A DNA stretch of 64,000 bases from Escherichia phage vB_EcoM_CRJP21. Position 1 is the stretch's first letter. Every line of letters begins with the position of its first letter. This document shows positions 26,537 to 27,649 of the stretch, piece by piece. The notes beneath the pieces were generated by a model. It had not been told where the DNA came from and did no database searches. It saw only the letters and a program-made list of their open reading frames with translations. The stretch is from sequence record OQ708376.1; one strand, 5' to 3'. The position numbers were made by a program, and so were the translations under genes.

Positions 26537-27649
26537 ATGAAAAAGTATTTGGTTGGTGGCTACGTCCGTGACCGTTTAATGGGTCTTCGTGCAAAAGACA
26601 AAGATTATGTCATTGTCGGAGCAACTGAATCTGATATTAAGTACTTGCAAAGTATTGGCTATAAGCAAGTAGGTAAGGATTTCCCTGTATATCTAAGTCC
26701 AGAAGGTAATGAACACGCATTAGCCCGTACTGAGCGTAAAACTGGTACTGGATATGGTGGCTTTGAAGTGGATACAAAAGGCGTAACACTCGAACAAGAT
26801 TTGTATCGCCGTGACCTAACAATAAATGCAATTTCGTATGATCCAGTACTACAAATTCACATTGACCCATACGGTGGTAAAGCTGATATCAAGAACAAGG
26901 TACTACGTCATGTGTCTGACCATTTTAAAGAAGATCCATTACGTGTGTTACGTCTTGCTCGATTTGCTACTCGTTATTCTGACTTTACTATCCATGAAAG
27001 CACTGAGGAACTCGCTATTGGAATGGTCAATAGTGGTGAGCTAAATCATCTTGTTCCTGACCGTGTGTTTGTGGAATTCGAAAAAGCATTTTCCGAAGAA
27101 AAGCCTGCAAAGTTCCTTAAGACGCTAAGTAAATTTGGTTATTACGAAAAGGTGTTTAATACATCTTTGACCAAAAAGAATTTAGACCTTATTGATTATA
27201 TTGCAGAGAACTGTACAGATGTATATAAACCATATTTTCTGTGGTCTATTCTTCTTGAAAATGAAGAAGTAAATAATGATTCAGTACTTAACGGTGCTAT
27301 TAAAGTTCCAGTTAAGTATGTTAAATTTAGTAATTATATCAAACGTTTCCGTGATGATATCAAAACATTCCGTAAAAAGACCCCTATTGAAATGGGTAAT
27401 ATTTTATTGGATATGAATATTAAAAATAACGGAGGTGAAGAATTCCTTTATAAAGTTTTGGAATACTTCATTTTGCGAAAAGAAATTGATTTAGAACTTG
27501 AAGATCTAATTATTAAAGTTTATGATCGTTATACTGATGTTGAATTGCCTGATATTCAGCAAATGGTCAAAGATGGTGAACTTGAAACGTCAGAAATTCG
27601 TGATTTTGTTTGTGAACTTCGTTACGAAGCAATCAAACAAATGTTCTAA
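26537..27649 (+). CDS. tRNA nucleotidyltransferase (CCA-adding enzyme / class II poly(A) polymerase family)
   Basis: head-domain motifs GGYVRD, DKD and RRDLTINA. Confidence 0.75.
   Translation: MKKYLVGGYVRDRLMGLRAKDKDYVIVGATESDIKYLQSIGYKQVGKDFPVYLSPEGNEHALARTERKTGTGYGGFEVDTKGVTLEQDLYRRDLTINAISYDPVLQIHIDPYGGKADIKNKVLRHVSDHFKEDPLRVLRLARFATRYSDFTIHESTEELAIGMVNSGELNHLVPDRVFVEFEKAFSEEKPAKFLKTLSKFGYYEKVFNTSLTKKNLDLIDYIAENCTDVYKPYFLWSILLENEEVNNDSVLNGAIKVPVKYVKFSNYIKRFRDDIKTFRKKTPIEMGNILLDMNIKNNGGEEFLYKVLEYFILRKEIDLELEDLIIKVYDRYTDVELPDIQQMVKDGELETSEIRDFVCELRYEAIKQMF

Follow-up and report, generated by a model that had tools for sequence, protein, structure and literature searches.

In class II tRNA nucleotidyltransferases, an EDxxR motif serves as the nucleotide template (PMC6468291). 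The EDxxR pocket picks CTP and then ATP, and the change to A-addition is driven by a flexible loop, whose deletion is a mark of CC-adding enzymes (PMC2910056). CCA-adding enzymes carry an ERxxxExxxhh motif, compared with sRxxxExxxhh, with a small residue in the first position, in A-adding enzymes (Martin & Keller 2004, as given in PMC10673834); the Martin & Keller criteria are used here in the form in which PMC2910056 and PMC10673834 relay them. Solved class II CCA- or A-adding enzymes include those of T. maritima (3H37/3H38), B. stearothermophilus (1MIV), A. aeolicus (4WBY/4WC2), and human (1OU5/8CBM). The Escherichia coli enzyme, Cca (b3056), is a fused CCA tRNA nucleotidyltransferase/phosphohydrolase. 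Every tRNA gene of E. coli encodes CCA; the host needs its own cca for repair only, and loss of the gene has a mild phenotype (PMC6468291; PMC10673834).

Genes of this kind are already known from jumbo phages, where CCA-adding enzymes are the second most common repair nucleotidyltransferase (Iyer et al., PMC7824862). Proteins identical or nearly identical to the one described here carry the label "tRNA nucleotidyltransferase" or "CCA-adding enzyme" in deposited records, and their family is PHROG 2244. Its jumbo-phage members, among them RaK2 gp031, GAP32, CBB gp192, and 121Q gp539, match the family over their full length, and all co-occur with a small tRNA cluster, a polynucleotide kinase (PNK), and an RNA ligase. 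In 2013 the RaK2 homolog was proposed to mature the phage's own tRNAs, beside PNK and RNA ligase (PMC3622015). The literature searched yielded no experimental (biochemical or genetic) characterization of a phage Cca. Since both the annotation and the RaK2 role proposal predate this work, the gene carries little weight as a discovery; what is added here is the loss of the HD site and a count of tRNA genes without encoded CCA over three genomes, both read from sequence.

The DNA analyzed (herein the window) is a stretch of 64,000 nucleotides from Escherichia phage vB_EcoM_CRJP21 (OQ708376.1). Around cca, a 4-kb stretch matches Escherichia phage vB_EcoM_phAPEC6 (herein phAPEC6; Asteriusvirus, 352,598 bp) at 99.8% identity and SHEFM2K, SP27, slurp01, 121Q, and others at 97 to 99%. 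Over the whole window, 62,154 of 64,000 bases align with phAPEC6 at 93 to 99% identity; the window represents ∼18% of a ∼350-kb jumbo coliphage genome. The cca gene lies on the + strand, as do all window features given below, at 26537 through 27649 (stop codon included). Its ATG, at 26537, is preceded by a GGGGGA purine run and stands 1 nt past the point at which the upstream ORF stops. This start is sound because the pairwise alignment with E. coli Cca begins at the first residue, on M1, and the two N termini pair residue for residue. Promoter-like sites around cca occur at chance frequency (24 found against 23 expected in a promoter and terminator scan) and are uninformative on expression.

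The preliminary description assigned the 370-residue product to the class II tRNA nucleotidyltransferases from three motifs: GGYVRD (residues 7 through 12), DKD (21 through 23), and RRDLTINA (91 through 98). The ORF list and regular-expression searches recover both the frame and the motifs, and a further one, EDPLRVLR (residues 132 through 139), that was absent from that list. Profile searches agree on the class. Pfam detects the PolyA_pol head domain (E = 3e-18) and PolyA_pol_RNAbd (E = 4e-8), and the protein matches PHROG 2244 ("tRNA nucleotidyltransferase") over its full length, residues 1 through 369 aligning with profile positions 3 through 387 of 392 (E = 3.2e-116). A protein identical to it is encoded by SHEFM2K, and it shows no material difference from the jumbo-phage members of PHROG 2244. 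Judged by these scores, the family assignment is far beyond chance.

The predicted catalytic head and neck comprise residues 1 through 207 (26537 through 27157). They are 52% identical to residues 1 through 207 of E. coli Cca, with small gaps only (E = 3e-65), and the two proteins share their motif architecture. Motif A (GGYVRD … DKD, residues 7 through 23; 26555 through 26605) was located by regular expression and contains the catalytic carboxylates D21 and D23; G7, G8, R11, D12, and D23 are invariant in an alignment of 34 family members, and the GGYVRD and DKD positions in general show little or no variation there. The BxA motif (R64-T-E66) and the flexible loop follow at residues 64 through 90 (26726 through 26806), as placed by alignment and motif spacing using the criteria of PMC2910056, and both R64 and E66 are invariant in the same alignment. 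Motif B (RRDLTINA, residues 91 through 98; 26807 through 26830) has R91, R92, D93, T95, and N97 invariant. Motif D (EDPLRVLR, residues 132 through 139; 26930 through 26953) is the EDxxR amino-acid template for CTP/ATP selection, with E132, D133, and R136 invariant.

The preliminary description had raised the possible absence of the flexible-loop and neck motifs needed for CCA addition; regular expressions and alignments find the BxA, loop, and EDxxR segments present. From the R-x-E-[RH]-K segment, which contains BxA, to RRD there are 22 residues, compared with 23 in E. coli Cca, and there is therefore no loop deletion in the phage protein. The loop sequences themselves are nearly identical (ALARTERKTGTGYGGF in the phage protein; ALARTERKSGSGYTGF in E. 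coli Cca).

The second half of the protein is more diverged. NCBIfam model PRK10885, which describes the E. coli-type Cca, matches only at its positions 1 through 207 of 409, scoring 272.6 bits and missing the equivalog cut-off of 451. For bacterial relatives that carry an HD domain (PF01966), the alignment covers the N-terminal ∼55% only, and the C-terminal region has no Pfam or NCBIfam match outside the phage family. This region (residues 208 through 370; 27158 through 27646) is all-helical in the AlphaFold2 (AF2) model and lies in the body/tail position. To place it, the C termini of 34 phage sequences (residues 205 through 370) were compared using hhalign with the C termini of E. coli Cca and five bacterial HD-containing Cca proteins. 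The alignment is collinear, pairing phage residues ∼246 through 365 with E. coli residues ∼280 through 402 at a probability of 95.5% (E = 1.3e-8); controls (reversed and 20 column-shuffled) all gave E ≥ 0.3. With single sequences as templates, E. coli Cca was matched with E = 2e-5 over 115 columns and PcnB with E = 0.03 over 22 columns. The C-terminal region is thus detectably homologous to that of E. coli Cca. Chimeras made by Betat et al. in 2004 reportedly indicate that the C-terminal region helps set CCA versus poly(A) behavior.

The phage protein is 42 residues shorter than E. coli Cca, and the HD metal-ligand segments (H-x-E-x-D, HDLGK, H-G-H, and AD-x-GR) sit in the gaps of the hhalign alignment. 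Regular expressions find no HD dipeptide anywhere in the phage protein, and Pfam PF01966 is undetected in it. No His is conserved in the C-terminal family alignment (32% His in the top column), and the H…HDxGK pattern occurs in 0 of 82 family clusters, compared with five of five bacterial Cca proteins. On this homology, the C-terminal 160 residues represent a Cca HD domain that has degenerated and lost all of its predicted metal ligands. With the HD phosphohydrolase site gone, the phage enzyme would be a nucleotidyltransferase only, and the commonly used label "multifunctional CCA protein / phosphatase" overstates its function for the same reason.

The full-length ∼370-residue architecture is found in ∼80 clusters, mostly on contigs of jumbo-phage size. 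Separate from these, a set of relatives of ∼350 to 380 residues (P0083 through P0120) has a catalytic half that is 51 to 60% identical and different C termini, with no HD motif in 33 of 38; judging from these sequences, the Cca HD domain appears to have been lost or replaced repeatedly. The T4-like Aeromonas phage ZPAH1 has a separate "metal dependent phosphohydrolase" gene (4521 through 5027 of its piece) two genes 3′ of its cca homolog and a PNK gene ∼3 kb upstream; this arrangement may be a split version of Cca plus HD.

When the AF2 model (pLDDT 93) is superimposed on the solved class II enzymes, the match extends along its whole length, although sequence identity to them is only 20 to 27% and the body and tail are unrelated at the sequence level. 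In the model, the head-neck-body-tail architecture is present and the shape that clamps the tRNA acceptor/T-arm is kept. The preliminary description held that the short length of the protein leaves the choice between CCA-adding enzyme and poly(A) polymerase open; this does not stand, 370 residues being within the range of solved class II chains (∼340 to 517 residues). Taken with the motifs, the model predicts a complete class II catalytic core (motif A carboxylates, BxA, loop, RRD, EDxxR, and [E/D]RxxxExxxhh) in a tRNA-clamping architecture.

The preliminary description noted no tRNA in 64 kb, and the window is indeed empty of them: ARAGORN predicts 0 genes, and Rfam cmscan, run with gathering thresholds, gives 0 matches. 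The oddity of an enzyme without substrates arises because only 64 kb of a ∼350-kb genome was in view: a whole-genome check of the kind that the preliminary description proposed, run with ARAGORN on phAPEC6, finds seven tRNA genes outside the window. They form one cluster (MK817115.1, ∼52,950 through 57,190; 3150 through 7392 of the piece analyzed) that is kept in relatives. The cluster lies ∼165 kb from cca, and there is therefore no operon link between them.

Four of the seven phAPEC6 genes have no encoded CCA; after the discriminator base, tRNA-Thr(UGU) reads CAA, tRNA-Asn(GUU) CAT, tRNA-Ser(ACU) CAA, and tRNA-Gly(UCC) CAA. The remaining genes, tRNA-Met(CAU), tRNA-Arg(UCU), and tRNA-Ser(UGA), encode it. 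SHEFM2K, whose Cca is 100% identical to that of the window, lacks CCA in three of six tRNA genes, and Klebsiella phage RaK2, which belongs to a different genus (its RaK2-like Cca cluster, P0012, is 69% identical), lacks it in four of eight. The gene for tRNA-Thr(UGU) is CCA-less in all three phages. These counts describe the related genomes phAPEC6, SHEFM2K, and RaK2 rather than the window's own genome. The earlier suggestion that the enzyme serves phage tRNAs encoded elsewhere in this way gains direct sequence support.

Several features of the tRNA genes merit separate mention. The GenBank record of phAPEC6 annotates no tRNA despite the seven found by ARAGORN; the records of G17, Sharanji, and SHEFM2K annotate theirs. 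A type II tRNA-Ser with anticodon ACT (A34), unusual in bacteria and phages, is present in phAPEC6 (4909 through 5000 of the piece) and SHEFM2K (3730 through 3821 of the piece), with a tRNAscan-SE score of 63.3 in the record; its RaK2 counterpart has the usual GCT. The phAPEC6 tRNA-Met(CAT) (4812 through 4901 of the piece) is 90 nt long with a long, poorly paired variable region and may contain an insertion or be a pseudo-tRNA; the SHEFM2K counterpart is normal, at 75 nt.

The genes around cca were also inspected. About 1.6 kb upstream, at 24605 through 24937, is a gene for a protein that resembles HPF/RaiA and would act in ribosome hibernation or modulation (Pfam Ribosomal_S30AE, E = 2e-9); its position is kept in Pectobacterium phage CBB. 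Directly 3′ of cca, at 27758 through 28409 and 28990 through 29466, come genes for a Nudix hydrolase (PHROG 1185) and a glutaredoxin, and then one whose product weakly matches a macro domain (PHROG 335 "phosphatase"). The tRNA nucleotidyltransferases of CBB and RaK2-like phages are 59 to 69% identical to that of the window and share the S30AE, cca, Nudix, and glutaredoxin neighborhood. The cca-Nudix-glutaredoxin order is kept in Asteriusvirus, Alcyoneusvirus, and Mimasvirus and not in ZPAH1. A functional cca-Nudix pair, for example for the repair of pyrophosphorylated CCA ends, was considered and is unsupported: the adjacency is confined to syntenic RaK2-like jumbo phages, and the Nudix protein has generic family matches only.

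Farther from cca, outside the window, phAPEC6 encodes a T4-type PseT polynucleotide kinase/3′-phosphatase and an RNA ligase 1 (Rnl1) (MK817115.1, 273,823 through 276,721). PseT and RNA ligase 1 are the classic pair against anticodon-nuclease damage. An IF-3 homolog is encoded at 45171 through 45674 of the piece that holds the tRNA cluster. The PseT, Rnl1, IF-3, and HPF/RaiA-like genes are consistent with a phage that invests broadly in the translation machinery.

Together, these data make it probable that cca encodes a genuine template-independent class II CCA-adding enzyme of the gammaproteobacterial Cca lineage whose main task would be to complete the phage's own tRNAs. From what is known of the family, the enzyme would add C74, C75, and A76 to tRNA 3′ ends. 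Host RNases would remove the 3′ trailer of the CCA-less phage tRNAs, and CCA would then be added. The genome points to this completion as the most likely job, because about half of the phage tRNA genes are without CCA and every E. coli tRNA gene has it. A second role could be to provide extra capacity, in the infected cell, for mending the tRNA ends of both host and phage; healing of 3′-phosphate or cyclic-phosphate ends would be left to other enzymes, such as the PseT kinase/phosphatase. The CCA-less tRNAs of T4 are matured by host enzymes. Because T4 manages in this way and the host supplies its own Cca, a phage cca is not obviously required.

An explanation that is plausible in principle and need not exclude tRNA completion is counter-defense or repair, the preliminary description having suggested an action against host nucleases that trim tRNA 3′ ends. 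During infection, the enzyme would rebuild the CCA ends of host and phage tRNAs after their removal by host exonucleases (RNase T) or by tail-directed immune effectors such as Cas12a3. Cas12a3 cuts CCA tails, and viruses would need a "yet unknown means of resistance" to it (PMC12851939); among toxins, toxSAS enzymes pyrophosphorylate the CCA end and MenT/AbiEii enzymes extend it. The same genome encodes PseT and Rnl1, which together form a T4-type pair for tRNA repair, and Iyer et al. group the jumbo-phage CCA-adding enzymes with RNA-repair nucleotidyltransferases (PMC7824862). Against these points, the sequence has no feature specific to such a role, a host Cca is already there, and the HD phosphohydrolase site needed for phosphate-bearing ends is missing. 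Cleavage by Cas12a3 often extends as far as the discriminator base (PMC12851939), and a CCA-adding enzyme alone could not repair such an end. Nor does a defense-related gene adjoin cca; the S30AE-like, Nudix, glutaredoxin, and weak macro-domain neighbors are generic, and their order is kept only within syntenic RaK2-like phages. We therefore regard counter-defense as unlikely. Its specific form, in which an HD-less phage Cca would lift CCA resynthesis above the host level against Cas12a3-type cleavage or RNase T turnover, we regard as quite unlikely.

A further alternative is a partial activity (CC-only or A-only), or a diverged C terminus that has redirected the enzyme to a non-tRNA substrate. 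The downstream discriminator [E/D]RxxxExxxhh reads DRVFVEFEKAF in the window protein (residues 175 through 185; 27059 through 27091; criterion from PMC10673834). Residues R176 and E180 never vary in the family alignment, and of its 34 members 24 have E at position 175, 9 have D, and 1 has N; the window protein has D175, a conservative change from the strict CCA motif ERxxxExxxhh. D175, together with a C-terminal 160 residues that differ strongly from those of cellular Cca (12% identical by hhalign), speaks for this alternative, and both may count against the main explanation. However, D is acidic like the E that it replaces, whereas A-adding enzymes have a small residue there; the flexible loop is of full length and nearly the same as in E. 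coli; and the phAPEC6 genome tables annotate no second nucleotidyltransferase that could act as a partner. Partial or redirected activity is very improbable on this evidence.

The distinction between CCA-adding enzyme and poly(A) polymerase was made from profile scores and signatures, with PcnB of E. coli as the single bona fide poly(A) polymerase sequence compared. PcnB shares the superfamily, the Pfam domains, and the fold with the phage protein. The pcnB models score far below their cut-offs (TIGR01942, 95.4 bits against 305.65; PRK11623, 49.7 bits against 702). PcnB is 31% identical to the phage protein (E = 1e-16) and aligns with it with wider gaps around the loop; the figure for Cca is 52%. 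The poly(A) polymerase signature [LIV][LIV]G[RK][RK]Fx[LIV]h[HQL][LIV] was sought upstream, between motif A and the loop (criteria from PMC2910056). The positive control, E. coli PcnB, contains it as LVGRRFRLAHV at residue 101; the phage protein has QVGKDFPVYLS at that place, and the pattern occurs in 0 of 120 relatives and likewise not in E. coli Cca. A PcnB-type poly(A) polymerase that tags RNAs for decay is, with the signature absent, the N-terminal extension of PcnB missing (the alignment begins at PcnB residue 63), the loop and C terminus of Cca type, and the C terminus without PcnB similarity, the least probable reading of all. By profiles, pairwise identity, published discriminators, and structural superposition, the class of the enzyme is CCA-adding and away from poly(A) polymerases; position 175 alone reads D.

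Were the counter-defense role true, the phage Cca would be an example of the resistance that is missing from the Cas12a3 literature (PMC12851939). For the favored explanation, completion of the phage's own tRNAs, a phage Cca together with a conserved set of CCA-less tRNAs, in a host whose tRNA genes all encode CCA, would give these phages a concrete and testable reason to carry cca.
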